Assembly: GCA_014905635.1 (NCBI GenBank) | Contig: CM026548.1 | Coordinates: 992,001-1,056,000, forward strand | Direction: 5' to 3' | DNA from: Scenedesmus sp. PABB004 | Taxonomy: Eukaryota | Length of the DNA stretch: 64,000 bases | In this document: positions 1 to 57,314 of the stretch, piece after piece | Position numbering within the stretch: position 1 is the first letter of the stretch | How the letters are laid out: the number at the start of each line of letters is the position of its first letter | Notes under the pieces: model-generated | What the model was told of the DNA's origin: nothing | Databases searched by the model: none | What the model saw: the letters and a program-made list of their open reading frames with translations, nothing else | Position numbers and translations under genes: made by a program

Positions 1-3000
1 GGCGCGCGTGTGGCTCGTCGGCGCGGCCGCGACGGGCGCGGCCGCGGCCCGGCGTCGGCGAGCGAGGCGCGGCTCACCCCAGGCCCGCCGCTGCCGCAGG
101 CGCCGAGGTGCAGGAGACGCTGCGCGTGGTCGACGCGCAGACGCGCGAGGCGGCTGCCAAGAAGGAGCTGGTCGCGGCCGAGGAGGCGGTCGCAGCCGAA
201 AAGGCGGCGGCGGCCAAGGCGATCAAGGTGCGCCGGCGCCGCCCGCGCCGCCGCCCGCGCCGCCAGCCGCGCAGCGCCCGACCGCGCCTTGCGCCGGCGC
301 CCGCGCTGGCAGGACGAGTGCGAGGCCGAGCTGGCGGTGGCGATGCCAATGCTGGACGCGGCGCTCGCCGCGCTCAACACGCTGACCAAGGCCGACATCA
401 CCGAGGCGCGCGCCGTGCCGCGCCGCGACCTGCAGCGCCCGCCCACGGCGCAAGCGCCGCGCCGGCCCTGCGCGCCGGCCCCGCGCGCGCCACGCAGACG
501 GGGCGCCGCTGCGCCCCGCAGGTGCGGTCGATGAAGAGCCCTCCCGCGGCGGTCAAGGTCACGCTGGAGGCGGTCTGCCAGCTGCTCGCCGTCAAGCCCA
601 AGAAGGCGCGGCGCGGTCGCGGCGCCGCGCTGGCCGGCCCTGCGGCGCACGCTGCCGCGCCGGCGGCGGGCCGGGCTCGCGAGCGCCGCGCGTGACGCCG
701 CGCCGCGCCGCGCACGCCGCAGGTGAACGACCCCACCGACCCTACGAAGAAGGTGGACGACTACTGGGGGCCCTCGCAGGCGCTGCTCGGCGACTCAGGC
801 TTTATGGCTCAGCTCCAGGCGCGGCGGCACGGCGGGGCTGCGGCGGCGGCGCGTGGCGCGCGGGGCGGAGCGCGCCCGCGCGACGCTGGAGGGTGGTGGC
901 CGTGACATGCTTTGCGCCGCCGGTCATTCAACCAATCCGCAGGAGTTTGACAAGGACAACGTGCCGCCCGAGCGCATCGCGGCGGTGCGGCCGTACCTGG
1001 CGCGGCCCGAGTTCCAGCCCGAGACCGTGCGCAAGGCGAGCAAGGCGGCGCACGGGCTCTGCTGCTGGGCGCGGGCGATGGAGGCGTACGACAGGTGCGC
1101 GCGGCCGCGAGCGGAGGGAGGGCAGGTCAGGCGCCCTGCGGCCGTGCCGCGCACAGGCTCCTGGCGGCGCGGCGGGCCCGGCGCGGGGGCCTCGCGCCCA
1201 GCCCCGCCCGGCGCCGCGCCCACGGCGGCTCGCCGGCGTGCCCGCAGGGTGGCCAAGGTCGTCGCGCCGAAGCGGGCGGCGCTGGCGCAGGCGGAGGCGG
1301 AGTTTGCGGCGCTCATGTCGGGCCTGGAGGCAAAGAAGGCGGAGCTCGCGGCCGTGGTCGCGGCGCTGGACGGCCTGAGCGCGCGGCTCGCGGAGATGCA
1401 GGCGCGGCGCGCCGCGCTCGCGGGCGAGGTCGGGCTGTGCGAGGCCAAGCTCGGCCGCGCGACGGCGCTCATCGGCGGCCTCGGCGGCGAGAAGGCGCGC
1501 TGGGGCGACGTTGCGGCGGGGCTGGCGGCCGACTACGCGTGCCTCACCGGCGACGTGCTGCTCGCCGCCGGCTGCATCGCGTACCTGGGACCGTTCTCCC
1601 AGCCGTACCGCGAGGCCGCGCTGGCGCAGTGGGCGGAGCGCTGCAGGTGGGTGCGCGTCGCTGGCCGAGCGGCCGGCGCAAGCGCGGCGTTGTGGCACGC
1701 GCGGTGCGGTGGCGCACCCTGACCCACCCGCGCGCCGCGCCGCCCCCGCACCACGCCGGCGCAGGTCGGCCGGCATCCCCTGCAGCGCGCGCTTCAGCCT
1801 CGCCGCGACGCTCGGCGACGCCGTGACGACGCGCGCGTGGCTGCTCGACGGCCTGCCCAACGACGCGCTGAGCATTGACAACGCCATCATCGTCAACAAT
1901 GCGCAGCGCTGGCCGCTCATGATCGACCCGCAGGTGCGTGCGTGTTGTGCACGCAGGGACCGCCGCTCTGTTCGGCGCTGCGCGGCGCGGTGGCCGGCGC
2001 GCTGTGGCCGGCGCGCTGTGGCCGGCGAGCTGTGGCGCGGGCCGACCCCGCGCTGCTGCGCCGCGCGCGGCCGCAGGGCCAGGCGGCGCGCTGGGTGCGG
2101 GGCACGGAGCGCAAGGCGCAGCTCGAGGTCGTGCGCGCCGGCACGGCGCCCGACGCGGCGGCGCGGCAGGTGGAGAACGCTGTGCAGTTTGGCACGCCGC
2201 TGCTGGTCGAGGACGTCGGGGAGGAGCTCGACCCGCTGCTGGAGCCGCTGCTGCTGCGCGCGGTCTTCAAGCAGGCGCGCGCGCTCGGCGGCGTGCGGGC
2301 CCCGCGGCGGCGGGCCCCGCGTGGCATCCGGGCGCCGCCGGCGACGCGCCGCGCCCGCGTGCGCAGGGCGGCGTCGACTGCATCCGCCTCGGCGACGCGA
2401 CGCTGGAGTATGGCGCAGGGTTCAGGCTCTACATGACCACGCAGCTGCCCAACCCGCACTTCCTGCCAGAGGTCGCGGTCAAGGTGAGGCTCGGAGCGCC
2501 GGCGTGGCAGGCCTGGGCGCGCCGAGGGGCACGGCCAGCTCAGCGGCGCGCGCAGGTCGGCGTGCTGTGTCCCGCGCGGGCGGGGCTCGCGCTGTGCGGC
2601 GCTCGACCGCGCGTCGTCCCCGCCCGCGGCCCCGTGCCGCGCAGGTGACGCTGCTGAACTTTGCCATCACGCGCGCGGGGCTGGAGGACCAGCTGCTCGC
2701 GGCGGTCGTCGCGGCGGAGCGGCCCGAGCTGGAGGAGGAGAAGGCGCGGCTCTCGCTCGCGGGCGCCGACAACGCGCGGCAGCTGAACGAAATCGAGGCG
2801 AGCGCCCCTGCGCGCAGCGCGCACGCGCTCTCTGCGCGGCCCTCACTCGCGCGCTGGCTGGCGCGCGGCGGGAGCCCTCGCTCTCGCTCCTCACACCGCT
2901 CCACTCACACTCTTGACCCACGCCTGCGTGCCCACCTCCCATACACGCGCCTGCCCGCCGCCCGCCTGCCGTCCTGGCCCGCCCACTCGCAGGACAAGAT

Positions 3001-6000
3001 CATGTCCGTCCTCTCCAGCGCGGAGGGCAACATCCTGGACGACGAGGTCGCCGTCGCGGTGGTGTCGGGCGCCAAGGCGCTCGCCGTCGACATCGGCGCG
3101 CGCCAGGTGGTCGCGGCGCGGACGGAGGCCAAGATCGACGCCGCGCGCGCGGGTGCGCGTGCTGCGTGCTGCGCGCCGCGCCCGCGAGGCGTCTGCCTGC
3201 GCGAGGGCTCTGTCGGCTGCCGCGCGCGGCGCCCGCGCGCGCTCACGCGCTGCTCCCACTGCCTCGGCCCTCCCCACAGGCTACAAGCCGGTCGCCGCGG
3301 CGGTGTCGGTGCTCTTCTTCGCGACCAGCGAGCTGTCGCGCGTGGAGTCCGTGTATCAGTACAGCCTCGCCTGGTTCGGCGCCCTCTTTGCCGCCAGCCT
3401 CGCCGCCGCCGAGCGCGCGCGCGCGCTGCCGCAGCGCATCGCCAACCTGGTCGCCCACTTCCAGCACAGCCTCTTCACCCAGGCGCGGGGGGTCGAGCGC
3501 GGGGCGGGGCGCCGCCACGCCGCACCGGGGCACCTGGCTCACCTCGCTGCAGCGGGGGCCCGCCCCTGACTCGTCGCCGCCCCCGCGCCCGCTGCGCCCG
3601 CGCCGTGCCCCTGCGCCGCCGCGCGCGTGTGCAGGTGTGCCGGGGGCTGTTTGCCAAGGACCACCTGGTCTATGCCTTCCTGCTCGCGGTGCACCTGCAG
3701 GCCCACGTGGCAGGCACACTGGACCTGGCGCACCTGCGCTTCCTGCTCACCGGTGGGTCTGTGGGCTGGGAGAGGGCGCGGGGGGCTTCGTGTGGCTGCG
3801 CAGGGGCGTCGCCAGCGACCTCTGGCGCGCCAGGCGGCGGCGCCGAGCGCGCCGCCCGCACCGCGCGCGCCGCCCGCGCCGCGCGCCGCAGGCGGCGTCA
3901 GCAGCGCGGAGCCGCCGCCCAACCCGTGCGCGTGGCTCTCGGACAAGCAGTGGGGCGAGCTCGTGCGGCTGGGCGCCGACGTGGCGGGCTTTGAGGGCCT
4001 GCGCGAGGCGTTCGAGGGCGACCAGGCGGCCTTCAAGGTGCGGCGGCGGCGGGCCCGCTGCGGGCACGGCCCGACGACGGGCACGCCGCCTGACGTCCCG
4101 CTGCGCGCGCGCTCTCCGTCCCCGGCCGCGCCTGCCTGGGGCGGCCCGGGCACAGGCCGTGTATGATGCTGCCGACCCCGCGAGCGTGCCGCTGCCGCGC
4201 CCCTGGGACGCGCGGCTGGACGCCTTCCGCCGCCTGCTGCTGCTGCGCGTGCTGCGCCCCGACGCGCTGCTCGGCGGCGTGGCGGGCTACGTGCGCGGCG
4301 CGCTGGGCCCGGCGTTCCTCGACCCGCCGCCGCTGGACATTGAGGCCTGCCTCAAGGACTCCACCCCCGCCACGCCGCTCATCTTCCTGCTGAGCCCGGG
4401 GGCCGACCCCATGGCGGCGCTGCTGCGGCTCGCGCAGGGGCTCAAGGTCCAGGTGCGCGCCCGGGGCACGCGGCGGCGCGGGAGCCGCGCCCGCGCGCGG
4501 CGTGCCCACGCCGCCCTCGTGCGCCGCAGGTCGACAGCATCAGCCTGGGCCAGGGCCAGGGGCCCAAGGCGACCAAGCTCATTGAGGCCGCGGCGGCGCG
4601 CGGCGGCTGGGTGGTGCTGCAGGCGCGCCGCACCGTGCGCGACGCACGGCCACGCGCGCGCGCGCGCGCGCGCGCGCCGCACGCTCACCGCGTGGGGCGT
4701 TGCGCCGCGCCCGCGCCCGCGCCGCAGAACCTGCACCTGGCCAAGTCCTTCATGCCGACGCTGGAGCGCCTGGTGCAGGGCCTCGCCGCCGACGGCGCCG
4801 CGACGGCGCCGAGCTTCCGCCTCTGGCTCACCACCGACCCCAGCCCAGACATCCCGGTGCGGCGGGTGGGCCGGCGCGGGCCAGCCGCCCCGCCGCGCCG
4901 TGCAACGCCTCGTTCACCAGTCCGCACGCTGCGCACAACGGGCGTCGCGCCCTCCGCCGCCGCACGCTGCAGGCGTCGGTGCTGCAGGCGGGCATCAAGA
5001 TGACCAGCGACCCGCCCAAGGGCCTGCGCGCCAACCTGCTCGCCAGCTGCGCGGCCGACCCGCTGACCGACCCCGCCTTTGTCGGCGGCGCGCCGCGGCC
5101 AGCCGAGTTCAAGTGCCTCCTCTTCGGCCTCTGCTTCTTCCACGCCGCGGTACAGGTGACGGCCGGGCCGCGCCGCCCACGCTGCCGGCGGCCGCACGCG
5201 CGGGCGCCGCGCGGCCCGCGGCGGCGCGCGGCGCGGGCGCACCTCCCTCCTGCAGCAGCTCGTGGCTGGCGGCGGCAGCAGCTCACCCGCGCGCCGCGCC
5301 CCGCGCGCCGCACGCCCCGGGCCTTGCAGGAGCGCGTCAAGTTTGGGCCGCTCGGCTGGAACGTGCCGTACACCTTCAGCGCGTCTGACTTTGCCATCAG
5401 CGCGCGCCAGCTGCGCATGCTCATGCCCGCCAGCGAGTCGCCCACGGCGGCGCTGCCCTTTGCGGTGCGCGCGCTCCGCCGTGCCGGCGCGCGCCGTGCC
5501 TGGGCGGCCGCCGCACCACCGATGCACGCCGCCGCCGCACGGGCCCACGCCGCGCCCGCCCCGCGCAGGCGCTGCAGCACCTCACCGGCGAGGTCAACTA
5601 CGGCGGCCGCGTGACCGACGCCCACGACCGCCGCACGCTGGCCTGCCTGCTCGCGGGCATCTACGGCGAGGCCATTCTCGACGAGGCGCGCGCCCGCAGG
5701 GGCCCAGCCCTCTCGCCAGCGCACGCGCTCGCAGCACAGCACGCCGAGGGGGCGCGCGGCCCGCGCCGCGCGCCGGCCGCCGCCTCACCCTCGCCGTGCC
5801 CCCCCCCCCCCGCCCGCCCGCGCGCCGACGCGCCCAGGGCTTTGCATTCAGCGCCGCGCCCGGGTGCGAGCGCTACACGGTGCCGCCCGAGGGGCCGCTG
5901 GAGAGCTGGCCGGAGTTCATCCGGGCCCTGCCCGCCGCGACGCCGCCAGAGGTGCGGCACGAGGGCTGGCACGCGCGCCCCGGCGCCCGCCGCTGGCTGG

Positions 6001-7557
6001 CCAGCGCCCCGTTGACCCCCCGCGGCGCTGGCCGCAGGTTTTTGGGCTGCACCCCAACGCTGCGATCACGCGGGACCGGCAGGAGGCCGACCAGCTGCTG
6101 GGCGGCCTGCTCGCCAGCCAGGGCGGCGTCGGCGGCGGCGGCGGCGGCGGCGGCGCCGCCGGCGCCGGCGCGGCGTCGGCGGGGCGCGACGCGCTGCTGC
6201 TCGCGCTCGCGGCGGAGCTGCGCTGCAAGCTGCGGGCGCCGTTTGACGTCGAGGCGGCGCGCTGCAGGCGCGCGCGCGGCCGCCGCGGGGCGCGCGCGGC
6301 GCAGGCCCTGGGTCCGTCCGGCGCGCGCCCAGCCGCCGTCTCCCTTCTCCATCACTCGCCCGCCCCCGCCCCCGCCCGCCGCGCCCCGGCGTCCCCGCAG
6401 GTTCCCCGTTGACTACGCGCAGTGCCTGAACAGCGTGCTGGTGCAGGAGCTGGTCCGCTTCAACCGCCTGCTCTCCACGGTCCACGCGAGCCTGTCGGAC
6501 CTGGGCGCGGCGCTGCGGGGCGAGGCGCTCATGTCGGAGCAGCTCGAGCGCGTCGCGGCGGCGATGTACGACAATCGGTGCGCCGCCGCCGCGGGGACTC
6601 GCCGCCGGCGGCTGGGGCGCGGCGGCCGCCGGCCTGGCCGCACGCGGCGCCGGCCAGCGCGCGCCCTGAGCCCGCCGCCGACCTCTCCGCCTGCCGCCTG
6701 GCCCCGCGTGCGCGCAGGGTGCCAGCGGCGTGGCTGGCGGTGAGCTACCCGAGCCTGAAGCCGCTCGGCGCGTACGTGTCCGACCTGGGGGAGCGCCTCG
6801 CGATGCTGGACGCGTGGCTGTGCGCGGGCGCGCCGCCGGCCGTGTTCTGGCTCTCCGGCTTCTTCTTCACCCACGCCTTCCTCACAGGTGGGCCTGCAGG
6901 GCAGGAGGGAGGGGAGGCCCCCCGCGCGAGGCCGCCGCCGCCGCCGGCGCGCGGTCGAGCCCGCGCGCGTGCAGCCCCGGCGGCGCCGCCTCACGCCGCG
7001 GGTTCCCTCGGGCGCCCCCCCCCCCTGCCCCGCGCCGCGGCAGGCGTGAAGCAGAACTATGCGCGCGCGCGCCGCGTGCCGATCGACACGCTCGCGTGGG
7101 AGTTTGCGCCCCTGCCGGCGGGGCCGCAGCCGCCGTCGCCGCCGCCCGACGGCGGCGCGGCCGTGAGCGGGCTGTTCCTGGAGGGCGCGCGCTGGGACGA
7201 GGCCGCGGGGCGCCTCGCGGAGAGCGAGCCCAAGGTGCGCGCAGCCGCGCCGCGGGGCGCCCGCCGCCGCGCTGCGCCGAGCCCAGCCCCGCCGCACCAC
7301 CGCCGCCGCCGCGTGCTGTGCAGGTGCTGTTCTCGCCCGCGCCGCTGCTGCTGCTGCAGCCGCGCGAGGCGGCGGCGCTCGCGCCGCCGGCGCCGGGCGT
7401 TGACATTGCCGTGTTCCGCACCGCTGAGCGCCGGGGCGTGCTGGCAACGACCGGGCACTCCACCAACTTCGTCTTCCACATCCGCCTGCCCAGCGACGCG
7501 CCGCCGGAGCACTGGGTGCGCCGCGGCGTGGCGGCGCTGCTGTCGCTCGCAGAGTGA
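1..7557 (+). CDS. Axonemal dynein heavy chain, 3' portion (stalk, AAA5, AAA6, C-terminal domain); 5' end outside window; 25 introns traced
   Basis: Spliced exons give dynein motifs: [158 protein letters not shown]. Stop TGA 7555-7557. Confidence 0.96.
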
Positions 7558-7712
7558 GACCATGCGCGCGGGCTGGCGGGGGCCCGCCGGGCGGGCGCGC
7601 GGGCGGGCACGCGCGCGGGCGGGCGGGGCGTGCACTTGTGACCAGAGAAACCGAAGCCTCGGCGCGCCGCGAGTTGCAAGGGACCCGCGCACTCGCGACG
7701 CCGCGCGCGCCG

Positions 7713-10674: not shown

Positions 10675-12086
10675 ATGGACCTGCTGGCGGGCTACGGCAG
10701 CGACGGCAGCGACGGCAGCGACGACGGCGGCAGCGGCGGCGCGCGGCCGGCCGCCGTCGTCGACGCCGGCCCCGGGAGCAGCCCGCGCCCCGCTCCCAAG
10801 CGGCCGCGCCTTGAAGCAGCGCCAGGGGGGTGAGCAGGGCGGCAGGCGGCGCGCGCAGTCCGCGCCGGCGGCAGCAGAGGCGGCGCAGCGGTGCTGAGCA
10901 CCGCGCCGCGCCGCTCGCACCATCCCTAAACGCCGCAGCCGCCGTGCCGACGGCGGCACCACCCGACCCGCCACGCTCCTCCCCGACCCAGCGGCCCTGC
11001 TGGACGACGCGGTGTCGGCGCGCGAGGTCGCGGCGCTCGCGTCGGCGCCGGCGGTGCGGCCGCCGCAGCCGCAGCTGCCGGCACGGCCCCGGCTGTTTCC
11101 CATCGTCGAGGGCAGCTTCCCGACCGTGGTCTATATCAACGGTGCGCGCGACCGCCGGACGCGGGCGCCGCGTGCGGCCCTGCCCTGCGGCGCGCCCCCG
11201 TCGGCGGCCGACCGCCCGCGCGCCGCGCCGCACGCGCCGCAGTGCCCGAGGCGCTGCACCAGCAGCTGCAGGCCCTCGCGGCGGCCCTGGTCGCGGACTG
11301 CCCCAGCAGCGGCGCCGCGGCGGCGGCGCCGGCCGCGCCGGCACGCGGCGCCGGCGCGCGGGCGCTGCGCCTGTGGCCGACGCTCCCGGGCGCGGCCGGG
11401 GCGCGGCGGCGCCGGCCCCGGGCGAGCTGGCGCCGCACGTGAGCATTTCGCGCACGCTGCCCGTCCGCGGCGACCAGGCGGACTCGCTGCGCGCCGCGCT
11501 GGCCGCGCAGCTGCGCGGCGCGGCCTGCCGCGCGTTCGGCGTGACGCTGTCGGGCCTCGAGTGCCTCGTGAACGACAACGCCAGCCGCTCGTTCGTGGGC
11601 CTGCGCGTCGCCGCTGGCCTGGAGCAGGCGCGCGCTCTGCGCGCCGCGCAGCCGCGCCGGGGCGCGGCCGACCCTGCTGCTGGTGCCGCCGCTGAGCGAC
11701 GCCCGCCTGCGGCGCCCCAGGTGGTGCGCCTGGTGGCGGCGGTGAACGCCGCCTTTGTCGCGCACGGCCTGCAGCCGTTCTACGAGGTGCGCGCCGCGTG
11801 CCGCGTGCCGCGCCCGCGCGGGCGCGTGCGGCGGCCCGGGCGCTCGCCGCCGCAGCAGGCGCGTGCCTGACGCCCGTGCCGCCAACACCCGCCCGCCGCC
11901 CGGCGGCGCGCTCCCGCGCGGCAGGAGCCGCGCCCGCACGTGTCGCTCGCGTGGGCGCCCGGCGACGAGACGGCGCGGCTGGGCCCCTGGCTGCGCGGCG
12001 TGGAGCACGCGCAGCTCGCGATGCAGGTGTGCAGCGTGGTCTGCCAGATCGGCAAGCGGAGGCACGTGGTGTGGGAGGGCTGCTGA
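10675..12086 (+). CDS. USB1: U6 snRNA phosphodiesterase USB1 (2H phosphoesterase); apparent 1-nt frameshift near 11370
   Basis: MDLLAGYGSD start, RLFPIVEGSFPTVVYI, first HxS motif HVSISRT, LVNDNASRSFVGL, FVAHGLQPFYE, second HxS motif HVSLAWAPGD, CQIG. Stop TGA 12084-12086. Divergent from rlmN. Confidence 0.88.
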
Positions 12087-18771: not shown

Positions 18772-20500
18772 CGGGCGGTCAGAGAGGTGGCCCCGGTGAG
18801 GCCCGCGGCGCCGCCTGATACCTCTGCCCCACAGCAGCGGCGGGGCGGCACGTTTTCAGGCGCGGCCGCGAGCCGTCGGCCGCGCCCCCAGCACGCCGCC
18901 CCACACCCCTTCCCTCCCCCTCCCGCGCACTCCCCTCTGGCACGCACGCACGCACGCACGCGCGAGCGCGGCGCCGTCGCTGCGAAACTCCCGTCCTCAG
19001 CGCCGCGGCGTGCCCGCCCCGCCCCGCCCCGCCCCGCCCCCGCCCTGCCCCGCCCCCGCCCCGCCCGGCCCGGCGCGCAGCCCAAGTTTCTGACCAAGGC
19101 GGAGCGCGAGGCCCTCGCGCTGGAGCGGCGGCGCGCCGAGGCGGCGGGCACGCGCGCGGCGCAGGACGAGCTCCGCCAGCAGCAGCAGCAGCAGCAGCTC
19201 GCGGTGCGAATGGGCGGCGCCGCTTGCGCGTGCGGCGCCCGTGCGGCGCCGCGCCCGCCCGGCGCGCGGGCTCTCGCCTCACCCGCGTCCGCGTCCGCCG
19301 CGCCGCCGCGCGCAGGACGAGGCGCGGCGCGCCGAGGCGGCGCGGCGCGAAGCGGCGCGCATGCGGGGCAAGGACGAGCGGGAGCGCGAGAAGGAGCTGG
19401 AGCTCATCCGCAAGCAGTACCTGGTGCGACGCGGCGCTGTGGCGCTGGCTCTGTGGCTGTGCGGCTGCTCACAGCCAGCTGTGTGTGTGGCCGTGGTGTG
19501 TGTGTGGCTGTGTGTGGGTGTGTCAGCGGAGCACCGCAGGCGGCCGGCGCGCCGCCCGCGCCGCTCACGCGCCGCCGCCGCGCGCCCCCCTCAACGCCCC
19601 GCCACCGCGCGCAGGGCGACGACGCGCCGACTAAGAAGCGTGCGATGAAGGCGAGTGAGAAGTTTCGGTTCAACTTTGACTGGGACGCCAAGGAGGACAC
19701 GAGCAAGGACCTCAACCCCCTCTACAACAACCTCCACCGTGAGACGCGGCGCCGCTGCGCAACGGCGCGCGGGCGGCGGCGCCGGCGCGGGGTGGGGGGG
19801 GGGGGAGTGAGGCGGCGCGGGCCGCCCGCTGCGCGCGCCCGACGCCGCGCCCACACGTGTGCCCACGCACGGGCCGCACGCCCACGCCCACGCTTTCACG
19901 CGCGCCCATCGCAGAGGCCAACCTGCTGTACGGGCGCGGCATGCTCGCGGGCATCGACCGGCGGGAGCAGAAGAAGGCGGCGGCTGCGGTCGAGGCGGAC
20001 GCGCTGCGCAAGGCGCGCGGCGCGGCGGGCATCGCCGAGACGAGCGACATGCGCGCGGCGGCGCGCGCGCGCGCGAGGCGCGTGCGGACAAGTACGATGC
20101 CTTTGACATGAGCGTGAGTGCCGCGCGCGCTGGGCCAGCCCGGCTGGGGGGCCCAGGGCTTCGCAGAGTTCGGGTTCAACTCAGCGCTCAAATCCTGCCA
20201 CGCGCACGCCGTGGCGCGCGCGCCGCGCGGAGGGGTGGGCCGCTGGCGGGCGCCGGTCGGCGGCGCCCGCGCCGGCGCCCCTCACCCGCCGCGCCCCGCC
20301 GCCGCGCGCGCCCCGCCGCCGGCGCGTCTGCTGCTGCTGCGGCCAGGTTGAGAAGCACTGGAGCGAGAAGCCGCTGAGCAAGATGACCGAGCGCGACTGG
20401 CGCATCTTCCGCGAGGACTTCAACATCAGCTACAAGGGCAACACCTCGACGCTGCCGCTGCGCGCGTGGGACGAGGCGGACCTGCCAGACATCATACGCA

Positions 20501-20568
<68 letters not shown>

Positions 20569-21990
20569 TGCGTGTGTGGGTGGGTGCGTGGGTGCGTGTG
20601 CAGGCGAGTGAGTAAGCAAGCGTGTGCAGGCAAGTGAGTGAGTGTGCGTGTGGAGGCGTGCGTGAGTGTGTGTGTGTGTGCACACGCGCGCCCGCCGCCG
20701 GGCGACGATGACCCGAAATCGCTTGATCTTATCTTTGAATGCCGCTGCCGCCGCGCGCGCGCCGCGCCGGGCCCGCCGCCGCCCCGGCGCGCGGCGGGGC
20801 CCCGGCGCGCGCGGCGCGCGCGGCAGGCGGCGCTGCCTGTTGAGACGTGAGGTCCTGAGCCCCCTCGGCCGCGGCGCGGACGCTGCTGTTGCCGTGTCGC
20901 GCGCGCGCGCGTCCCGCCTGCGCGCGCTTCTCTCCCCGCGCCGGCCGCGTCTCGCGCTGCCGGCCCGCTGCCCCGACGCCTGCCCTCCCGCCTCCCCCCT
21001 CCCCTGCTCTCCCGTGGCCCCTCTCCGGGGCCGCCGCAGGGCATCACCGCGGTCGGCTACGCCAAGCCCAGCCCCATCCAGATGGCCAGCATCCCCCTCG
21101 GCATGCGCCAGGTGCGCGCGGCGCGCGCCCCATGCCTCGCGCCGCGGGCCGCCCCGCATCCGCTCGCCTCTCCCTGCGCAACCCCGCGGCCGGAACCTCC
21201 CCACCCTGCTGGACCCCACCTTAAGCCCTTAACCCTAAACCCCGCCCTGAACCCATCCCCAAACCCCGCGCAGCTCGACGTCATCGGCGTCGCGGAGACG
21301 GGGTCGGGCAAGACGGCCGCGTTTGTCATCCCCATGCTCTCCTACATCCTCCGCCAGCCGCCCATGACCGAGGAAAAGTACGCGGACGGGCCCTACGCCG
21401 TGGTGAGGCGGCGCCCCCGCGTGCCCCTGCGCTGTGCTCGTGCCGCCGCTCGGGCGTCCGCCGCTTCGCGCATGCTGCGCACGGCGGCGGCGGCGCGCGG
21501 GCGGGCGTTGACAGGGGCGAGCCGCCGCCGCGCCGCGGCTCTGCTGCGCAGGTGCTCGCGCCGACGCGCGAGCTGGCGCAGCAGATTGAGGAGGAGACTG
21601 AGAAGCTGGCCAAGTTCACGGGCTTCAGGTGGGTGTGTTTCTTTGGGGGGGGGGGGGGGGGCGCTGCAGGACAGGCAGGGCCAGAGGGAGGGTCGGGGGC
21701 CGGAGCGCGAGCGAGGGCCGGGGCACGAGGCAGGGAGCATCAGCACGTCGGCCGGCCGACGCGCGCGCCGCCGCGGGGCCGCGCGCGCCGCCGCGGGCCC
21801 GCGCGCCCGACCCGCGCCGCCGCCGCGGCCGCCCGCCCCGCCCGCGCAGGGTGACGTCGGTCGTGGGCGGGCAGTCGATCGAGGAGCAGGGCAGCGTGCT
21901 GCGCCGGGGGTGCGAGATCGTGATCGCCACGCCCGGGCGCCTGCTGGACTGCATCGAGCGCCACTACTGCGTGCTCAACCAGGTGAGGGT

Positions 21991-22021
<31 letters not shown>

Positions 22022-24142
22022 GGGGCACAGCGCGCGCAGCACGCACAGCACACACAGCACAGCGCGACGGGCGCGCCCTGCCTCGCGCGGCGTGCGCGAC
22101 CACGCGCCCGCCCGCCCGCCTCTGCCGACCAGCCCCTCCCCACACACACACACACACACACCCACACCCACACACACCCACCGACTGTCCATGCGCGCAG
22201 TGCAACTACGTCGTGCTGGACGAGGCGGACCGCATGATCGACCTCGGCTTCGAGCCACAGGCGCGCCCGGCCGCGCCGCCGCCGCCCGCCCGCCCGCGCC
22301 GCGCGGCATGCGCTCCTTGGGGCGCCGCCTCCCTCCCTCTCCCCCCTCTCACACCTCCCCACCCCTCCTCCCACACCGCACGCCCTCCTTCTCCCTCCCT
22401 CCCCCTCCCTCCCTCTCTCCCTCCCTCCCTCCCTCGCTCGCCCCCTCCCGCGCGCACGCCCCGCAGGTCCAGGCGGTGCTGGACGCGATGCCGAGCGCGA
22501 GCATGAAGCCGGAAGACGAGGCCACCGAGCTCGAGGCGGGGCGCACCTACCGCACCACCTACATGTTCAGCGCCACCATGCCGCCCGCGGTCGAGCGCCT
22601 CGCGCGAAAGTACCTGCGCCGGTGCGGCGCGAGGCTGCGCGGCGCGGCGCGGCCGCGGCGCGCGTGGCGCGGCCGCGGCGGCGGCGGCTGCGGCTGCGCG
22701 GCGCGAGGGGCGCGGGGGCGCGGGGGCGCGGGGGCGCGGGGCACGGCCGCCCGCGCTCTGCCGCCACGTGAGCTCCGCGCGTGCTCCGCCGCGGCCGCGC
22801 ACAGGCCGGTGGTGGTGAACATCGGCCGCGCCGGCATGGCGACCGACAACGTCACGCAGCGCGTCATCATGGTCCGGGACAACGAGAAGGCCGGCAGGCG
22901 CGCCGCGCGCGAGCGCGCCCCGCGGCCAGCCACGCGCGCCCGCGCTCGTCACTCCTCTCCCCCCCCCCCCCCCCAACACACACACACACACACGCACACA
23001 CACCCGCCCCACCCACCCGCCCAACACCCACACACCCACACATCAACACACCCACACACAATCACACGCCCACCTTAACTGCAATGCACACGCACAGGCT
23101 GAGCAGCGAGATGGGTCTGATCCACGAGAAGAAGGTCATCGTCTTTGTCAACACCAAGCGCTCCTGCGACGCCGTGTACGCGCAGCTCGAGGAGGCGGGC
23201 TACCGCTGCACCGTGCTGCACGGCGGGCGCTCGCAGGACCAGCGCGAGGTGCGGCGGCGCCGCCGCCTGGCGCGCTGCTTGCGCGCCGATGCGGGCGCCC
23301 GGATGCGCTCGCCACGACGCGCCCGTCTGCTCAGCACGCCCAACTCACACCAAACACTCACCAAGCACTCACCAAACACTCACGCCAAACGCCCACACCA
23401 AACGCCCGCCAAACACGCACCGCACAAACACACAGGTGTCGATCAAGGGCTTCAAGGACGACACGTACAACGTGCTCATCGCGACCGACGTCGCGGGGCG
23501 TGGCATCGACGTCCCCGACGTCGCGCTCGTCATCAACTACGACATGCCGCACTCGATCGAGGCCTACACACACAGGCGCGGCGGCCGGGCGGCGGGGCGG
23601 GGCGGGGCGGGCGGGGCGGGTGGCTGCGTGGCTGGGCGGGGCGGGGTGTGCGGTCGCGCGGGCGGGCAGGGACGAGGGCGTGGGGCGGGGGCGGGGGGGA
23701 CGGAGCGGCGGGGCGGGGCGCGTGCGGGGAGGGGCGGAGGCGGCCGCGACCTGTCCCGGCCGCCGCCGCGCCGCCGCGCCGCCGCCGCGCAGAATCGGGC
23801 GCACGGGGCGCGCGGGGCGCAAGGGCACGGCGATCACGTTCCTCACGGGCCACGACAGCGAGGTGCGCGCGGGCTCGGCTCGCCTGCCCGCCCGCCTGCG
23901 CCGTGCGGGCGAGCCCGCCCACGCCGCCCCCTCGCGCCCGCCCGCCCGCCCCCCAAACCCTAAACCCCGCCCGCCCGCCCGCCCCCAAAACCCTTAAACC
24001 CCAGGTCTTCTACGACCTCAAGCGCCTGCTGGAGGAGTCCAAGGCCCCCGTGCCGCCCGAGCTCGCGCGCAGCGAGGCGGCCAAGCAGAAGCCGGGCGCG
24101 ATCAGCCAGAAGCGCGAGAGCGTGCAATACGCCAAGAAGTGA
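18036..24142 (+). CDS. PRP28: Pre-mRNA splicing DEAD-box helicase PRP28/DDX23; apparent 2-nt frameshift near 20070
   Basis: RD/RS-rich N-terminus, [104 protein letters not shown]. Stop TGA 24140-24142. Confidence 0.96.
20503..20562 (+). repeat. (GT)n microsatellite starting exactly at a 5' splice site
   Basis: aag|gtgtgtgt..., about 30 units. Confidence 0.95.
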
Positions 24143-30504: not shown

Positions 30505-32004
30505 GCCACCACCCTGGCCGCAGCCCGCCGCGCCCAAGCCCGTGCAGCAGCTCAGCAGCAGGCCCCATAGCGAGGCCGGGGGCAGCGGCAGCGTCAGCGC
30601 CACCAGCAGTGGCGGCCCCGGCAGCGGCGCCGCGCGCGCCGACAGCGGCGCCAGCAGCGGCGCCGGCGGGAGCGGGGGCGGCCTGCGGCGCTCCAGCAGC
30701 TGCGGCAGCCTGCCGCGCGGCGCGCCGCCGCCTGCCACCTTGGCCACGTCCGCGCCGCAGGCGCAGCGCGGCTCGCGCCAGCTGCCGGCCTCGCTCGGCG
30801 CCGGCGGCAAGTCCCGCGGCTCCGCGGGCAAGCCCGGCGCCCGCGGGCGTGGCGGCGCGGCGCCGGCGCTGGCGCCGGCGTGGCAGCCGGCGTACGGCGT
30901 GCCGCGCGCGAAGCCCGCGGCGCTGCTGACGTACGCGGGGCGCGCGCGCTACGCGTCTAGCGCGGCGGAGGTGGACGCGCTGTGCGACGCGCTGCTCGAC
31001 GCCGCGCCGAGGCTGCTCGGCTTTGACATTGAGTGGCGGCCGAGCTTTGTCAAGGGCGCGGTGCCCAACAAGGCCGCGCTGCTGCAGCTGGCCTACGCGG
31101 TGCGCGGCGCACGCGCGGCGCGTGCGCGCCAAGCGCCGCCGCCGCGCGGCCGCCGCGCCCGAGCGCGTGCGCGCGCCACGCCCGCTGTCTGCCACGGCAG
31201 GTCGACGAGCGCGGCCGCGACTGGCAGCCGCAGCACGACGGCCGCGGCGCGACCGTGCTGCTGCTCCACATCTTCTACAGCGGCATCACGCCCAAGCTGC
31301 AGGCGCGCGGCGGGGCCGGGGCCGGGCCAGCGCCGCCGCCGCGTGCACGCGTGCGCCGGGGCTGGGGCAGCTGGCGCAGCGCCCGCGTTGCGCGCGCCCC
31401 GCCGGCGGCGCCCGACGCCGCGCGCGCGCGCCGCCGCCGCCGCGTGCTCGCGCCCGCCGCCGGGCGCCGCAGGAGGTGCTGGCGCGGGAGGACATTGTGA
31501 AGGTCGGCGTGAACATCGGGGGCGACGTGACAAAGCTGGCCACCGACTTTGGCATCGACGTCGCGGGCGCGGACGACCTCAGCGACATGGCCCACACCCG
31601 CGAGCTGCGCCGCGTCGCGGGCGTCACGGCCAACACCGAGCACAAGCGCTGGAGCCTCGCGGGTGCGGCGCGGGGGAGGGCGGGGGCGGGCGCGCGGCGC
31701 GGCGGCGCGCGCGTGTGGCAGCTGCGCAGCGGCCGCGCCGACACGCGGCGGCACCATCACCGCAGGCCTGGTGGAGGAGGTGCTGGCGCTGGATTTGCCC
31801 AAGCCGCAGCACATCCGGCTCGGCAACTGGGAGCTGCGGCCGCTGACGGACGAGCAGCGGCGCTACGCCGCGCTCGACGCCTGGGCGAGCCTGCTGATGC
31901 ACTGGGAGCTTGCTGCGCTCGCGCCCCGGCCCACGCTGAGCCAGCAGCTGCGCGAGGCGATGCGGGAGCGCGCCGCCGCGGCGGCCGAGCTCGGCGGCGG
32001 CTGA
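29303..32004 (+). CDS. Werner-syndrome-like (WEX/WRN-exo) DEDDy 3'-5' exonuclease with long low-complexity, poly-Gln N-terminus
   Basis: LLGFDIEWRP (ExoI), ALLQLA, KVGVNIGGD (ExoII), WSLA/GLV, IRLGNWE..PLTDEQRRYAALDA (ExoIII). Confidence 0.9.
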
Positions 32005-44287: not shown

Positions 44288-46645
44288 TCACGGCGCCGCC
44301 GCGGGCGGCAGCGCGTCGAGGCCGACCAGCTGCTCCAGCCCCGCGCGCAGCCGCCCCGCCGCCTCCACGCACGCGCCCGGCGTGAGGTTGGCAAACGCGA
44401 CGCGCAGGTGCCCCGGAGCGCCGCACGCGCTGCCGGGTATCGCGCACACGCCGTGCTCGCTGATGAGCCACGCCACGGCGGCCTCGTCGGCGGCCGCAAA
44501 GCGCTCCGGTAGCGCCGCCCAGTAATAGATAGCGCCCTCGCCGCCGGCCACGCCCGCGCCGCGGCGCCCGAGCGGCACCAGCGCGTCGGCGACGGCGCAC
44601 CGGTTGCCCTCCAGCCCCGCCACCTGCGCGGCGACGTACGCCCGCGACTCGCCGCTCAGCGCCGCGAGCGCGAGGTGCTGCGAGAGCTGGCTCGCGCAGA
44701 TGGGGATGGTGTCTTGAACCTGCGCCGGCGCAGTCGCGGCGGGGCGCGGGGGCCGTCGGCGGCGCGCGGCGGGGCGCGTGTGGGCGCGGGGGCCGTCGGC
44801 GGCGCGCGCGCTCTGCTGGCAAACGCGGCGTGCCTTGAGGATTTCGTCGGCGAGCCGCCCGCCGCCGCCCGCCGCGGCGCCCGGGTATGCTATGTACCCC
44901 ACGCGCCAGCCCATCATGCCCGCGCACTTGCTGAAGCTGAAGAGGTGCAGCACGTTGGGGCCTGGCGGCGGCGCGCGGCGCGCGGCGGCGCGGCGGCGGC
45001 GGCGGTCAAGGGGCGGCGCGCGGCAGCGGCCGGCGGCCGGCGGCCGGCGGCGGCGCGCACCCGGGACGCAGTGGTGGGTGCCGCCGTCGTACAGAAAGTC
45101 CTCGTAACTGTTGAATTCAGATTTGATTCGAGCGGCGCGGGCGCGGGCGCGGGCGCGGGCGCAGGCGCGTGAGCACGCGGTGCGGCGGCGCAGGCGGGGC
45201 GGCTGGCGCCGCGTGCGCCGGCCGCGCGGCGCGCGCCGCCGCACGTGCAGTCCAGCACGAGCCACGCGCCCGCGGCCGCGCACAGCGCCGCCGCGCGCTC
45301 CAGCTCCTCGCGCGGCAGCAGCACGCCTGCGGCGGCGGGCGGCGTGACGGCGCGGCGGGCTCTCGGGCATGCCGCGGCGGGCCGCGTCCAGCCCCCACCC
45401 TCTACACCATCCCCCACGCGCCCGTGGGGTTACAGGGGTTTGTGATCACCACCATCTTGGGCGGCGCCGGCCCCGCGAGCGCGCCGGCCAGCCAGTCGAG
45501 GTCGGGGCGCAGCGACCCCGGCAGCGACGGCCCCAGCAGCACCTTGTGGGGTGCAGCGGCAGCGGCGGCGGCGGCACGGCGGCGCGTCGGCGGGGGCCGG
45601 CGGCGTGCCGAGACGCGCGCGCGCCGCGCCTGGGGCGCAGGGCGGCGGCGGCGGCGGCCGCGCGGGCTGCGCAGGCTGGCTCACGCCGGTGTCAGTCATC
45701 TGCAGGGCCATGAGATGGTTGAAGTAGTATGGAGTGAACAGGACCACCCTGTCGCTGGCGTCGCACAGCGACAGCACCAGGTTCTGCGCGGCGCCGGGCG
45801 CGCGCGGCGCGGGGCGGCGCGCGCGGGCTCGGGCGCGCCCGGCGCCGCGCGCTCGCGCGCGCGCCGCCGCGCGGCGTCCACCCGGGGCGCTGGCGGGCCG
45901 CGCGCGTCCGGCGTCGCTGGTCGCCCCCCGCGCGCGCCGCGGCCGCCGCGAGGCGCGGCGGCGGGCGCGCCGTGCGCACCACGAAGCCTTGGTTGGCGCC
46001 GGCCGTCACCATCGCCTCGTAGCCCGGCAGACCGTTGACAGATGTGAGCTTGGCGGCGAGCGCCTCGCGCAGCGCGGGCAGGCCGTCGGCCGGGCCGTAG
46101 CCGTGGACGGCCGGCCCGCCGGCCGCGAGCAGCTCCGCCGCGCGCGCGGCGGCCGCCGGCGGCGGCTGCCAGTGCACAATGCCCTGCGCCAGCGACAGAA
46201 CCTGCGCCGGGGCGCGCCAGCGCCGCACGGGCCGGCATCGCGCCGCGGCGCGAGGCGCAGCGCGAGAGAAGCAGCCCGCCGCGCCGCGCACGCGCGGCGC
46301 GCGCGGCGCGCGCGCACGGGTCGGCCGGGCGGTGCTCGCGCCATCATGGCCTTGGTCTTGACGATCACGGGCGCGTCGGTGGCCAGCACGCGGCGCGACA
46401 CCTGCCAGCGGGCGCGGGCGCGGCCGCAGCAGCGGGCGCTCGCAGCTCACCAAGCAGTGCCGTGCGCCTGTGCCCCCCTGTGTGCTCCCCGGACTCCCCG
46501 GACCCCCACAAACCTGCGGGAGTACCAGTCGGGGCGCGGCGTCGCCGCCCTGCGCCGCCAGCGGCAGCAGCGCTGCTCGCCGCTGCCGCGCGGCCGCACG
46601 GCCGCACGGCGCGGCCTGCCGCCCGCTGCGGCGTGCCAGCCGCAT
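44288..46645 (-). CDS. Class I/II PLP aminotransferase, ISS1/VAS1-like aromatic aminotransferase, with N-terminal transit-peptide-like extension
   Basis: SRRVLATDAPVI, SLAQGIVHWQPP, YGPADGLPALR, VTAGANQ, PYYFNH, NPCNPT, LVLDCT/YEDF, FSFSKCAGMMGWRVGY, K/VQDTIPIC. Confidence 0.9.
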
Positions 46646-46872: not shown

Positions 46873-47676
46873 TCACGCCGGGCTCGACCGGTCGGCGCCG
46901 GCGTCGTCGCCCTGCGCCGCGCCCAGGCCCTCGACGACGCCCTGGCCCGCGGCCTTGGGCGACTCGGCCTCGGCCTCGCGCACGCCCGCGAGCGCTGCCT
47001 TGGTCGCGCCGTCGACGCGCGGCCCGGCGCCGCCCGGCAGCGTCGGGTCGTTCTGCCCGCGGCGCGGGCATGGGCGCGCGTGGGCGGCGCGGTACGCGGC
47101 CGGCGCGCGGCAAGGGGCGCGCGCTGCTGCGCGCAGGGCCCCCCGGCGCGCGCCTGCACTGGATACGCTGCCGGGTCGTCCACGCCCTCCAGCTTGGCGC
47201 CCGCCGGCCCGGCCTCGTCGCGCGGGAAGCTCATCTTCTCCTGCGTGGCCTGGCTGGCGCGCGCAGCAGGCGGGCGCGGTGCAGCGCGGCGGGCGGGGCG
47301 CGGCGCGCGGCGCGCGGTGCGCGGCGCGCGGTGCGCGGTGCGCGGCGCGGCACAGCGCGCAGGCGCGCTGCGGGCGGCCGGCGGCTCCCGCGCGCGCCTG
47401 CGTGACCGAGGGGTTTGGCGAGGGCGCGGGGTCGCGGTCTTCGCGGCCGTAGAGCTCGCCGGAGCTCGGCGCTGCGCGGCGCGCGGCGCGGCGGGGCGGC
47501 ACGGCCGGGTGGCGCGGCGGCGCCGGGCGCCCGCCGAGCGCGTGCTGGCCCTGCGCCGCGCACGCACACGAGTCCGGCAGCGGCTTGTCCTTGCCCGCGG
47601 CGGCGCTGGCGTGCAGCGCGCGCCGCGCGGCCAGCGCCGACGACGCCGCCGCTCGGTGCACGAGCGAAGCGAGCAT
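46873..47676 (-). CDS. Small hydrophilic hypothetical protein with mitochondrial-like presequence; multi-exon
   Basis: MLASLVHRAAASSALAARRALHASAAA start; exons in consistent phase, two joined by GC-AG introns; stop 46873-46875. Confidence 0.62.
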   Translation of the reverse strand: MLASLVHRAAASSALAARRALHASAAAGKDKPLPDSCACAAQGQHALGGRPAPPRHPAVPPRRAARRAAPSSGELYGREDRDPAPSPNPSVTQARAGAAGRPQRACALCRAAHRAPRAAHRAPRAAPRPPRCTAPACCARQPGHAGEDELPARRGRAGGRQAGGRGRPGSVSSAGARRGALRAAARAPCRAPAAYRAAHARPCPRRGQNDPTLPGGAGPRVDGATKAALAGVREAEAESPKAAGQGVVEGLGAAQGDDAGADRSSPA

Positions 47677-48651: not shown

Positions 48652-48693
<42 letters not shown>

Positions 48694-49655: not shown

Positions 49656-49812
49656 CTGCGCTGCTCCCCCTGTCTCACCGCACCGTGCCGTGGCGGCCCG
49701 GCCGAGCGAGCAGGATCGGGCGCGGGAGCAGGGTCGGGCGCGGGAGCGGGCGCGGGAGCGCGTTACCGGCCGCGGTGCGGCGCCCACGCGGGCGCGCTGC
49801 GCGGTGTCTCGC

Positions 49813-51493: not shown

Positions 51494-51543
<50 letters not shown>

Positions 51544-52658: not shown

Positions 52659-52993
52659 CGGTGCTGCTCACGATGCTGCCGCGCAGGCGCGCGGCCGCGC
52701 GGGGCCCCGCGCGGGCTGTGGCAGAGCACGTGATTTGATGATGACACACAGGGAGCGGACGCCCGCCGGCGCCCCCAAGCGTGGCCGCGGGGAGCGCTCG
52801 ATGTGCGCTTCGCTCGCGGAAGCAGGCCGGGTGGCGCTGGCGGCGCGACGGGCCGCGTCCCAGAGAGTCGTGGGAGTCGTGGGGACTGCGGCCAGGGCGC
52901 ACGGACGCCGCCGCTCCGTGGCGCACGCACAGCCCCGCCGCAGAGCCCCCCGCCGCCGCTCCCGGGCGCGCGAGGAGCTCCCGCGCCACCGAC

Positions 52994-54516: not shown

Positions 54517-54766
54517 GCCGGCAGCGTGCGTGCGCGTGGCTGCTGCGTGCCTCTAGACGGCGCAGGCGTGTGAGGAGGGGGCCGGGCTGAAGAAGCGAAG
54601 CGAGCAGCGAGCAGCGGCATGGGGGTTTGACCGTGCCCGTCGGCCTGCCCCCGTGCAGCCCGCCTGCCCACGCCGCTCTCCCCGCTACCGCGCCGACCCG
54701 TTTCGCCCGCAGGCCAGCTCCTGTGCGTCCCGCACAGCCCCCACGCCGCGGGCTGCCCACGCAGGG
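54517..54766. promoter_or_regulatory. Probable bidirectional promoter between RSP14 and RSP4/6
   Basis: 250 nt between two divergent ATGs; no specific motif identified. Confidence 0.5.
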
Positions 54767-57314
54767 ATGGCGAGCGCCGAGGTGCAGGAGGCGGTCGCCC
54801 TGCTGCAGAAGACCGGCTCCAGCGATGGAGGGAGCCTGTACGAGCAGCTCACGCACCTGATTGCCAAGGCACGGCGCGGCGCGGCGCCGGCGCGGCCTTC
54901 GCGAGCTGCGGAGCTCGCTCGCGCCGTCTTCTGGCGCTCAGCGCGCCGCCGCCGCCGCTGCCGCCTCCGCCCAGGTGCTGGAGGAGAAGCCTTCCAACCC
55001 CGTGGACCTGCGGGAGACGGCGCTGCTCAACACAAAGGCCGCCGGCGCGCCGGGCGCGGCCGCAGCAGCGCCGCCGGTGCGTGGCGGGCGCGCGCCCGCG
55101 CCAGGGGGGCCCGCCGGCCTCCAGCATGCCCCAGCAGCTGCGCAGCATGCGTGCCGGCGCACCCACGCCACCGCCCGGGCCGCCACCGCGCCGCGCGCAG
55201 AGCATCGCCGACGCCGCGCGGGCGGTCGCCGCGGCCAAGCTCTACGGGTGCGCTGGCTGGCCGGCGGGCTGGCAGCGAGGCGCGCGGCTCCATCTTGCGC
55301 TGCCCTGACCCGCGCGCTTACGCCGCCTGCGGGCGCGCCGCAGCGCGGGCGACGTGCCGATCGACTCGGAGACGGGCGAGCCGGTGGAGGTGGAGCCGCC
55401 CAACGAGGCGCGGCGCGGCGCGGCCGTGCCGGCCAACCAGCCAGCTGGCCGGGCTGCAGCCCGTCGGCGACCCCCTGAGCAGCAGCCGCCGCCGCGCCGC
55501 CGCGCCGCCGCGCAGTACGAGTGCGAGGACATCCAGGGCGACGCGGCGCTGTTCAGCGCGCTCGGCGTCGGCCTCGGCCGCGCGGAGATGACCGACGTCG
55601 CGCTCGCGGTCAAGCGCCTCGGCGAGGATCCGCGCAAGGGCGTGGCCACGGTGCGCGCGGCCGCGGCGCCGCGGCGCGGCGCGCTGCCTGCAGGCGCTGG
55701 CTGTCCTGCGAGCGCGCGGCGCACCGGCCGCCCCGCCCCGCGCGCAGGTGCGCTTCTTCGGCAAGTTCTTCGGCACCCACGCCGACTACTACGTTTTTGA
55801 GACCACGCTCCGGTCGCCGCCGGAGGAGCCCGAGCGCGGTGCGGCGGCGCGCACGCGGCGGCGCGCACGCGGCAGCGGCAAGGGCCGGCGGGGCGGAGAG
55901 GGGCGGCTGCGGGCGGCGCGCGACGTCGCGGCGCCGGCGCCGCAGGCGAGGGCGAGGCCGCGGGCGAGGCGCCGCTGGAGTGGGGCAGCGGCGCCAACGC
56001 CTACGTCTACTTTGTGGGCAACGCCCTCGGCGGCCCGCTCACGCAGCTGCCGCACGTCACGCCCGCCCAGGCGCGCGCCGCGCGCCGCGCGCCCGCGCCG
56101 CCGCCGCGCGCGGGCGGCGCCGGCCGCCGAGCGCGCGCCCGCCGCGCGCAGGTGAAGGCGGCGCGGCAGCTCAAGCGCCTGCTGACGGGGCGGCTGGACG
56201 CCCGCGTGAGCAGCTACCCGGTCTTCCCCGGGCGCGAGGCAAACTTCCTGCGCGCCCAGGTGCGACCCCGGCTCGCGCGCACGCACGCCACACGCCCCCT
56301 GCGGGCCGCACCTGGCCGGGAGCCGCGGCCGCCGCGCGCGCGCGCGCACGCCGCGCACCGCTCGACCGCACCGCGCGGCGCTTGCGCGCCAGATCGCACG
56401 CATTTCGTGCACCACCGTGGTCTGCCCCGCCGGGCTGTTCGTGGTGAACGAGGACGGCGGCCTGGAGGCGGCGGAGGAGCCGCCGCAGCTGCCCGTGCGC
56501 GAGATGGGCGCGCCCGCCAACTGGGTCCACAGGTGCCTCCGCGGCGCGGGGGCCGGCCGTCGCCGTCTGGCCCGGCTGGCCCGGGCACGGCGCGCGGCCG
56601 CGGCGCGCGCGGCGCCCCGTCACGGCCGCGCGCCGCGCGCCCTGCGTCGCTGGCTCCCCGCAGGTACCCCCACCTTAAGCGCCAGGGCCGCTGCGCGGTG
56701 CACAAGCGCGAGGCGCCGGAGGGCGAGGAGGACAGCTTTGAGTACACGTGCGCCCCGCCGGGGCGACGCGCCGCAGCGGCCCCGCGTTGTCGCTGCCGGC
56801 TGAGCGCGCGGGCTCCACCGCGGCCGCCGCCCGCGCCCGCCCGCCCGCGTTCCGCACGCGCGCAGCGAGGAGGAGCTGGAGGAGGGCCCCGAGCAGCTCG
56901 CGGCGCTGGAGGGCGACGACGAGGTCGGCGGCGGGCCGGCGTGGAGCCCGCTGTTCAGCAGCAGCGACGCGCACGTCAAGAACCAGGCGCGCACCCGGGC
57001 GGCGCCCGGGGCGCGGGCCGCAGTGGGCCGCAGCGGGTCGTGCAGCACGCGCCTCGGCCGCGGTCGCGCACGCCTTGGGGCCGCGCGCCGCGCCGCAGGT
57101 CGCGGGCCTGCGCAGCAACCTGTGGCCCGGCGCCGCGTGCGCGTGCCTCGGGCCGCGCTTCACCAACGTGTACGTCGGCTGGGGCGCCAAGGCGGGGCCG
57201 TACCTGCCGCCCCCGCCGCCGCCGGTGGCTGCCGAGTACGACGCGGCGCTTGTGGAGAGCGCGGAGCTGCCGCCCCGCGCCGCGCCCGGCGGCGACGGCG
57301 GTGCGGAGGAGTGA
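54767..57314 (+). CDS. Radial spoke head protein RSP4/RSP6 family
   Basis: SLYEQL...K/VLEEKP, VRFFGKFFGTHADYYVFE, GANAYVYFV, LP.VTPAQ/V..AR.LKRLLTG.L, FPGREANFLRAQ/IARIS, LRSNLWPGA, F.NVYVGWG.K. Confidence 0.93.

Follow-up and report, generated by a model that had tools for sequence, protein, structure and literature searches.

How often can an intron in the nuclear DNA of a green alga begin with GC rather than GT, and what would allow it to do so? The question is raised by a stretch of 64,000 nucleotides from Scenedesmus sp. PABB004 (contig CM026548.1, positions 992,001 to 1,056,000), referred to here as the window. A sequence-only reading of this DNA had proposed that GC-AG introns are exceptionally frequent in it, with at least 21 in the window and nine among the 25 introns of a dynein heavy chain gene. 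The claim of frequent GC-AG introns is confirmed in several unrelated genes: when candidate splice junctions were scored against protein homologues, GC-AG was the top-scoring choice at 16 of 49 junctions (33%), namely 9 of 25 in dynein, 3 of 13 in the RNA helicase gene PRP28/DDX23, and 4 of 11 in the radial spoke head gene RSP4/6. Judged from sequence, these are very probably genuine major-type (U2-dependent) GC-AG introns, which would account for roughly one in three introns of this extremely GC-rich chlorophycean nuclear DNA.

For each gene, homologues were fetched, a hidden Markov model (HMM) was built from them, and exon cores were placed in three frames. All in-frame, stop-free joins between adjacent exons were then enumerated, allowing GT, GC, and AT donors with an AG acceptor (AC in the case of AT). 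Candidates were scored by the fit of the joined peptide to the homologue HMM, and the splice-site motif was not part of the score. At five junctions GT and GC candidates tied or nearly tied (4453 against 4459, 5465 against 5450, 55077, 55839, and 56748). These junctions were given to GT because the sites read GTGCG there; since every tie was assigned in this direction, the count of 16 in 49 is conservative. With the introns of an aminotransferase gene added, the tally becomes 18 GC introns in 55.

The GC-spliced products are open, and gapless relative to homologues, at every GC junction of dynein, PRP28, and RSP4/6. No in-frame GT option exists at 3 of the 16 GC sites (819, 2798, and 22261), and at the remaining 13 the best GT would add or remove 2–19 residues in conserved sequence. 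An intron starting with GC and ending with AG is thus found where the mature coding sequence demands it at 16 junctions by HMM scoring and at one more by alignment to a structure in the PDB. These figures support the expectation that gene prediction limited to GT donors will mis-model genes in this DNA.

The dynein HMM was built from 18 of 23 homologue hits, and 1261 candidates were scored over the 25 junctions, with junctions 19 and 20 scored in a corrected frame. GC-AG wins at exactly the nine positions named in the sequence-only reading, by margins of 7.7–19.9 bits over the best GT, and the other 16 junctions are GT. All nine GC introns are on the forward strand. The first three are found at 406..521 (GAG/GCGCGC ... 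CAG, where the slash marks the exon–intron boundary; best of 69 candidates, 69.7 bits against 61.7 for GT), 606..722 (AAG/GCGCGG; 70.2 bits against 50.8), and 819..942 (CAG/GCGCGG; 91.6 bits, with no in-frame GT). These three are spanned by an alignment to P0001, a transcriptome-derived homologue from another species, that covers 318 residues at 76% identity with no gap columns. The intron at 2275..2366 (CAG/GCGCGC; 114.2 bits against 102.6) gives the junction FKQ/GG and that at 4623..4727 (CAG/GCGCGC; 86.7 bits against 76.9) the junction VVLQ/NLHL, both gapless relative to a second homologue, P0003. At 2798..2992 (GAG/GCGAGC; 90.6 bits), which has no in-frame GT, the nearest GT lies 130 nucleotides downstream, and at 5686..5837 (GAG/GCGCGC; 47.4 bits against 29.7) the sole GT inside the intron is at 5796, 110 nucleotides downstream. 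The remaining two are 3483..3634 (CAG/GCGCGG; 70.8 bits against 63.1) and 6268..6400 (CAG/GCGCGC; 58.2 bits against 38.3). The spliced dynein product is a stop-free sequence of 1428 residues, and its alignment to P0003 over 1426 residues has 28 gap columns, none of them at any GC junction. Of the two dynein junctions decided for GT by consensus, the one at 5465 is a tie in score with GC at 5450, while at 4453 the GC candidate at 4459 scored 3.1 bits higher but is without any consensus.

For PRP28, the HMM comprised 24 full-length homologues taken from the 120 matches listed of 847. GC is best at the three donors that had been proposed, all on the forward strand. At 22261..22466 (CAG/GCGCGC; 127.1 bits) there is no GT candidate, and the junction FEPQ/VQAV is identical in the Scenedesmus orthologue P0035. 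At 22898..23097 (CAG/GCGCGC) the GC join scores 96.9 bits against 60.8 for GT, a margin of 36 bits. At 23576..23792 (CAG/GCGCGG; 128.8 bits against 109.9, a margin of 19 bits) the intron splits helicase motif VI, and YTH/RIGRTGR is again identical in P0035. All three junction peptides, motif VI included, are gapless relative to this orthologue. One PRP28 junction is beyond the reach of the score, as two frames match in that exon, and its GT donor (20114) was instead assigned by inspecting the sequence; an AT donor at 20097, the top score there, was rejected as an artefact of the frame conflict. The exon concerned, 19915-20113, matches the DDX23 profile at positions 210-268 in one frame and 245-279 in the other, a double match that might reflect a frameshift, an indel in the assembly, or Ala/Arg sequence of low complexity. 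Telomere-like CCCTAAA/CCCTTAA-type motifs occur within two of the PRP28 introns (21200-21262 and 23950-24004), and among the tracts found in its other introns are GT/CA microsatellites and poly-G or CT-rich stretches (21985-22030, 22140-22185, 22330-22450, and 22960-23070 are examples).

The RSP4/6 HMM was built from 31 homologues of 400–640 residues, from the 150 matches listed of 328 in an exhaustive search. Here too the four proposed GC donors came out on top, by 8.6–25 bits over GT, all on the forward strand: 54869..54974 (AAG/GCACGG; 44.4 bits against 26.2), 55408..55515 (GAG/GCGCGG; 50.7 against 42.1), 56071..56151 (CAG/GCGCGC; 134.4 against 109.2), and 56987..57098 (CAG/GCGCGC; 82.6 against 72.7). 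The spliced product ends in a stop, and residues 6-436 align to the homologue P0157 at 56% identity with all four GC junctions gapless; the junctions PNE/YECE (55408) and VKNQ/VAG (56987) match P0157. The three RSP4/6 ties (55077, 55839, and 56748) fall in variable regions of the protein.

The same pipeline was run on 80 DDX23 loci from metagenomes. Sixteen callable loci, apart from two described below, gave 40 GT, 3 GC, and 6 ambiguous calls, and the three GC calls are without the donor motif; the pipeline therefore does not manufacture GC donors. In the two other loci, both on contigs of 69% GC, GC is found at 8 of 10 DDX23 donors (locus L008, 2913-7719) and at 3 of 5 (locus L007, 2-2102), all of them reading AG/GC[GA]CG. 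Because the spliced L008 protein has its best named matches in Coccomyxa and Myrmecia, these contigs appear trebouxiophyte-like. The intron that follows FEPQ, at 22261 in the window, begins with GC in the window, L007, and L008 alike. In the adjoining alignment column, an intron of the same phase begins with GT in the window and with GC in L008, and the two may represent the same intron position.

All 16 verified GC donors read AG/GC[GA][CA]G, with G at +5 in every case. Exonic AG precedes 16 of 16 GC donors and only 19 of 33 GT donors (Fisher p = 0.0017), in agreement with the proposal that GT donors tolerate other exon ends. The GT donors are mostly GTGCG or GTGGG, with A at -2 in 61%. The two classes share the consensus G[TC]GCG (+3 G, +4 C, +5 G); they are told apart only by the base at +2 and by the narrower choice of exon end among GC donors. 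The suggestion of a "relaxed" 5′ splice-site code is consequently not upheld, as the GC donors are more constrained than the GT donors at -2/-1 and at +5. In the three gene spans the motif AG/GC[GA][CA]G accounts for just 24 of 2733 GC dinucleotides, among them all 16 donors, which had been chosen on protein score without regard to motif. Frequent GC donors in the window are far beyond chance. The motif was found to be of no use for extending the count to the rest of the window, where a background of about 1.3 per kb (non-donor and antisense occurrences) already explains the 66 motifs in the remaining 50 kb.

At the 3′ end, the acceptor is CAG in 49 of 49 verified introns (window positions 99-7554, 19739-24004, and 54869-57098). 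No CYRAY branch-like match occurs in the last 70 nucleotides of 36 of the 49, and with the match absent in 13 of 16 GC introns and 23 of 33 GT introns, no difference indicative of branch-point compensation was seen.

Could these be introns of the minor, U12-type class? AT donors were enumerated everywhere and won no resolved junction. The GC donors read GCGCG or GCACG, with +3 to +5 as in the GT donors, and show neither an extended U12 donor box nor a U12 branch box. Moreover, minor introns and minor-spliceosome small nuclear RNAs (snRNAs) are reported to be lacking from Chlorophyta (PMC11347168), so the GC-AG introns of the window would not be U12-type.

Base composition offers the most likely route to the U2-type GC donors. 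GC content is 75–82% in each of the sixteen 4-kb bins of the window and about 80% overall. In the dynein exons it is 0.75, 0.50, and 0.96 at the first, second, and third codon positions, and 24 dynein introns pooled are 85.5% GC, with T at only 8.1% and A at 6.4%. Under a substitution pressure so strongly biased towards GC, the T at +2 would tend to be turned into C (introns here being 85% GC and 8% T). Such a C would persist only at donors whose other positions (exonic AG, G at +1, and G at +5) still allow good pairing with U1 and U6, so that GC donors would build up at AG-ending exons while exons with other ends would keep GT.

Further GC donors had been proposed in four genes outside the three scored by HMM. 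One of these is a class I/II aminotransferase gene on the reverse strand, in which the claimed GC-AG intron at 44720..44833 (AAG/GCACGC) is backed by a solved structure. PDB entry 7vrx_A has LK followed directly by VQD, the same as the GC-spliced product, and a nearby GT would add three residues between them. A second intron in this gene, 45327..45421 (CGG/GCGCGT), was absent from the sequence-only list. Its donor is the sole candidate that joins NPCNPTG (an NPxNPTG motif) to VLLPREEL without an indel, and the coordinates of 7vrx_A are consistent with it. We therefore consider 45421, with moderate confidence, a probable GC-AG donor whose exon ends in GG. The statement that every GC donor follows exonic AG accordingly stands for the 16 verified sites, with 45421 as the only exception seen. 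The six-intron spliced model of the aminotransferase has an open frame. A 34-residue exon of this gene found no match in the PDB. Another intron of this gene, 45543-45684 on the same strand, ends in AAG.

In the USB1 gene (HVSL family), the putative GC-AG intron at 11628..11720 on the forward strand (CAG/GCGCGC) is 93 nucleotides long, in frame, and stop-free. Reading through it would place 117 residues over 87 positions of the Pfam HVSL profile, and the exon alone stops near profile position 149-153. By this continuity the segment behaves as an intron, an assignment that is supported but not proven. Both this intron and the 114-nucleotide aminotransferase intron at 44720-44833 are stop-free multiples of three; retention of either would keep the frame, and stop-to-stop lists of open reading frames (ORFs) run through both.

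The claimed intron in a gene for a WRN-type 3′-5′ exonuclease, 31303..31472 on the forward strand (CAG/GCGCGC), has an in-frame GT alternative at 31351. PDB searches returned no match for this gene, and Pfam matched its downstream exons, with no match to the upstream exon. Two putative GC-AG introns, 47250..47397 and 47053..47153 (both CAG/GCGCGC), belong to a small gene on the reverse strand, where they agree with frame, codon-position GC pattern, and consensus. With the donors 47397 and 47153 spliced, this gene has an open frame, exon-like codon periodicity, and flat intron composition. The gene itself (46873-47676) would encode about 184 residues with no Pfam match, and its Ala/Arg-rich N-terminus resembles an organelle presequence.

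Are the GC donors a uniform feature of the genome? They could instead be real but weak, regulated sites that are enriched in particular genes and inefficiently spliced. There is precedent for this in the haptophyte Emiliania huxleyi, where a majority of GC donors is reported to be accompanied by pervasive intron retention (PMC4028052), and in animals and plants, where GC donors have been linked to alternative splicing (PMC3488318). The stop-free USB1 and aminotransferase introns point the same way, since retention of either would leave a translatable message. On the other hand, the rates of GC donors are similar in all three verified genes (9/25, 3/13, and 4/11), and GC introns interrupt housekeeping cores, helicase motif VI among them, whose function would be lost on retention. 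On balance we think it unlikely that weak, regulated sites account for the pattern.

A slightly less likely explanation is that the spliceosome of this lineage has itself come to accommodate C at +2, perhaps by way of an altered U1 5′ end or altered U6/Prp8 contacts, which would make GC donors equivalent to GT donors. Such an adaptation would fit the occurrence of frequent GC donors in two green-algal classes at levels that do not simply track GC content: in DDX23, L008 at 69% GC has 8 GC donors in 10 compared with 3 in 13 in the window at 80% GC (Fisher p = 0.012). It would also fit the conservation of one orthologous GC intron between the window and the trebouxiophyte-like contigs. What speaks against it is the greater constraint on GC donors, with AG at 16 of 16 exon ends as opposed to 19 of 33 for GT, which is the signature of compensation at weak sites rather than of equivalence. 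Errors of sequencing or assembly (T read as C), or splicing at a nearby GT, are very improbable, as an identical change would have to have struck one and the same motif position at 16 or more independent sites, independent metagenome contigs have GC at an orthologous intron, three sites have no in-frame GT, and use of GT elsewhere breaks conserved motifs.

The higher frequency of GC donors in L008, at lower GC content, also invites a broader proposal. Abundant GC-AG splicing might be characteristic of GC-rich green algae from two classes or more (Chlorophyceae and Trebouxiophyceae), a trait so far unreported, at a frequency determined by some lineage-specific alteration in how 5′ splice sites are recognised and not by GC content alone. 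We put this forward as a speculative possibility that is probably not correct as it stands. If true, such algae would provide a natural system in which the near-universal requirement of U1/U6 recognition for U at +2 is partly lifted.

Several points weigh against reading the GC donors as U2-type introns that arose through compositional pressure and make up about a third of all introns here. Splicing is inferred throughout from protein homology, and the sample is 64 kb of one genome. Five GT/GC ties were decided by consensus. The earlier total of at least 21 GC introns holds for the 16 sites placed by HMM scoring, for 44833 by PDB alignment, and for 11628 by Pfam continuity, but three of the 21 stay putative: 31303 fits frame and consensus only, and 47397 and 47153 fit these and the codon-position GC pattern. 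Since the USB1 segment at 11628..11720 is in frame and stop-free, it could be a retained in-frame insertion. Decoy AG/GC motifs inside exons are not depleted, with 4 observed and 3.8 expected from synonymous-codon shuffling, an underpowered comparison for which the RSP4/6 coding sequence was offset from its frame by one base. Finally, the DDX23 comparison between L008 and the window shows that GC content alone does not set GC-donor frequency, and that something lineage-specific matters too.

The gene content of the window was examined with a Pfam scan of 125 stop-free ORFs, selected, for their GC periodicity over codon positions, among all ORFs that end past position 7600 and encode 45 residues or more. 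The scan bears out the genes previously listed for this DNA. On the forward strand these are the dynein heavy chain (up to about 7.55 kb), USB1/HVSL (10.9–12.1 kb), an FHA protein, DDX23/PRP28 (18.4–24.1 kb), the WRN-type 3′-5′ exonuclease, a glycosyltransferase, and the radial spoke head protein RSP4/6. The reverse strand carries a radical SAM protein, a mitochondrial carrier, and the class I/II aminotransferase, and LRR, GATA, WW, and response regulator domains were also matched. Over the helicase core, spliced DDX23 shares 86% identity with Scenedesmus and Tetradesmus proteins, and the closest named match of the dynein is from Monoraphidium; by these matches the DNA is chlorophycean and probably close to Sphaeropleales. 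Two splicing-related genes are found within this one 64-kb stretch: USB1, which functions in U6 snRNA 3′ end processing, and PRP28, which frees U1 from the 5′ splice site. Nothing unusual was noticed in the PRP28 sequence, which is 86% identical to that of Scenedesmus. An Rfam scan of the window at gathering thresholds gave no matches, and hence no snRNA gene in the window.

If GC-AG introns of the U2 type are as common as they appear, gene finders and spliced aligners that accept only GT-AG, or that penalise GC-AG heavily, would get about every third intron wrong here, truncating or frameshifting conserved genes, those for dynein, PRP28, and radial spoke proteins among them. This would make protein sets suspect, whether derived from such genomes or from metagenome contigs of GC-rich algae. 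Green algae would join haptophytes and pelagophytes as lineages in which the second base of the intron has been eroded by compositional pressure. A clean rule, acceptance of C at +2 after an exon that ends in AG, opens to direct test how mutation bias is traded off against U1/U6 recognition.

In animals and plants GC-AG introns are rare, at about 1% of the total; they are U2-type introns in which C at +2 is offset by a near-perfect remainder of the donor, especially exonic AG. The introns of the window resemble them in being apparently U2-type and in pairing C at +2 with exonic AG. They differ in being about 30-fold commoner and in having GCG at +3 to +5, compared with purine-A-G in animals.

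Among published systems, a survey covering animals, fungi, and plants is reported to place GC-AG first among the non-canonical classes and to single out unusual use of GA-AG, not of GC-AG, as the outlier (PMC7072748). GC donors are reported at 0.3–2% in plants and animals and at 0.32% in a low-GC relative of the pelagophytes; in the pelagophytes themselves they reach 14–17% (Aureococcus) and about 14% (Pelagomonas), which is ascribed to GC content (bioRxiv 10.1101/2024.10.30.620910; 10.1101/2021.10.25.465678). In E. huxleyi, with a genome of 65% GC, 56–65% of donors are GC according to expressed sequence tags, RNA-seq, and reverse transcription PCR, and gene models based on GT are wrong owing to these donors, for which high GC content is credited (Feldmesser et al. 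2014, PMC4028052). The description "exceptionally frequent" should therefore be toned down, as there is precedent in E. huxleyi at about 60% and in the pelagophytes at 14–17% (PMC4028052; bioRxiv 10.1101/2024.10.30.620910). Our literature search, which left most subscription journals and genome-paper supplements outside its range, turned up no account of green algae with abundant GC-AG introns.

The window is apparently the first green-algal case of a phenomenon known from haptophytes and pelagophytes. With the pelagophytes, as they are described in the two preprints, it shares high-GC algal DNA and, in the genes scored here, GC donors far above the plant and animal level; the pelagophytes, however, are stramenopiles with few introns per gene, derived in part from introner elements, and their fraction of GC donors is about half that of the window. 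The likeness to E. huxleyi, so far as that account describes it, lies in GC-rich nuclear DNA, GC donors in the tens of percent (for the window, in the genes scored), an AG acceptor that is kept, and misprediction by GT-only models. Unlike that haptophyte, which belongs to a different supergroup, the present alga is a chlorophyte, in whose scored genes GC donors amount to about 33% in DNA of about 80% GC, as estimated here from protein homology.

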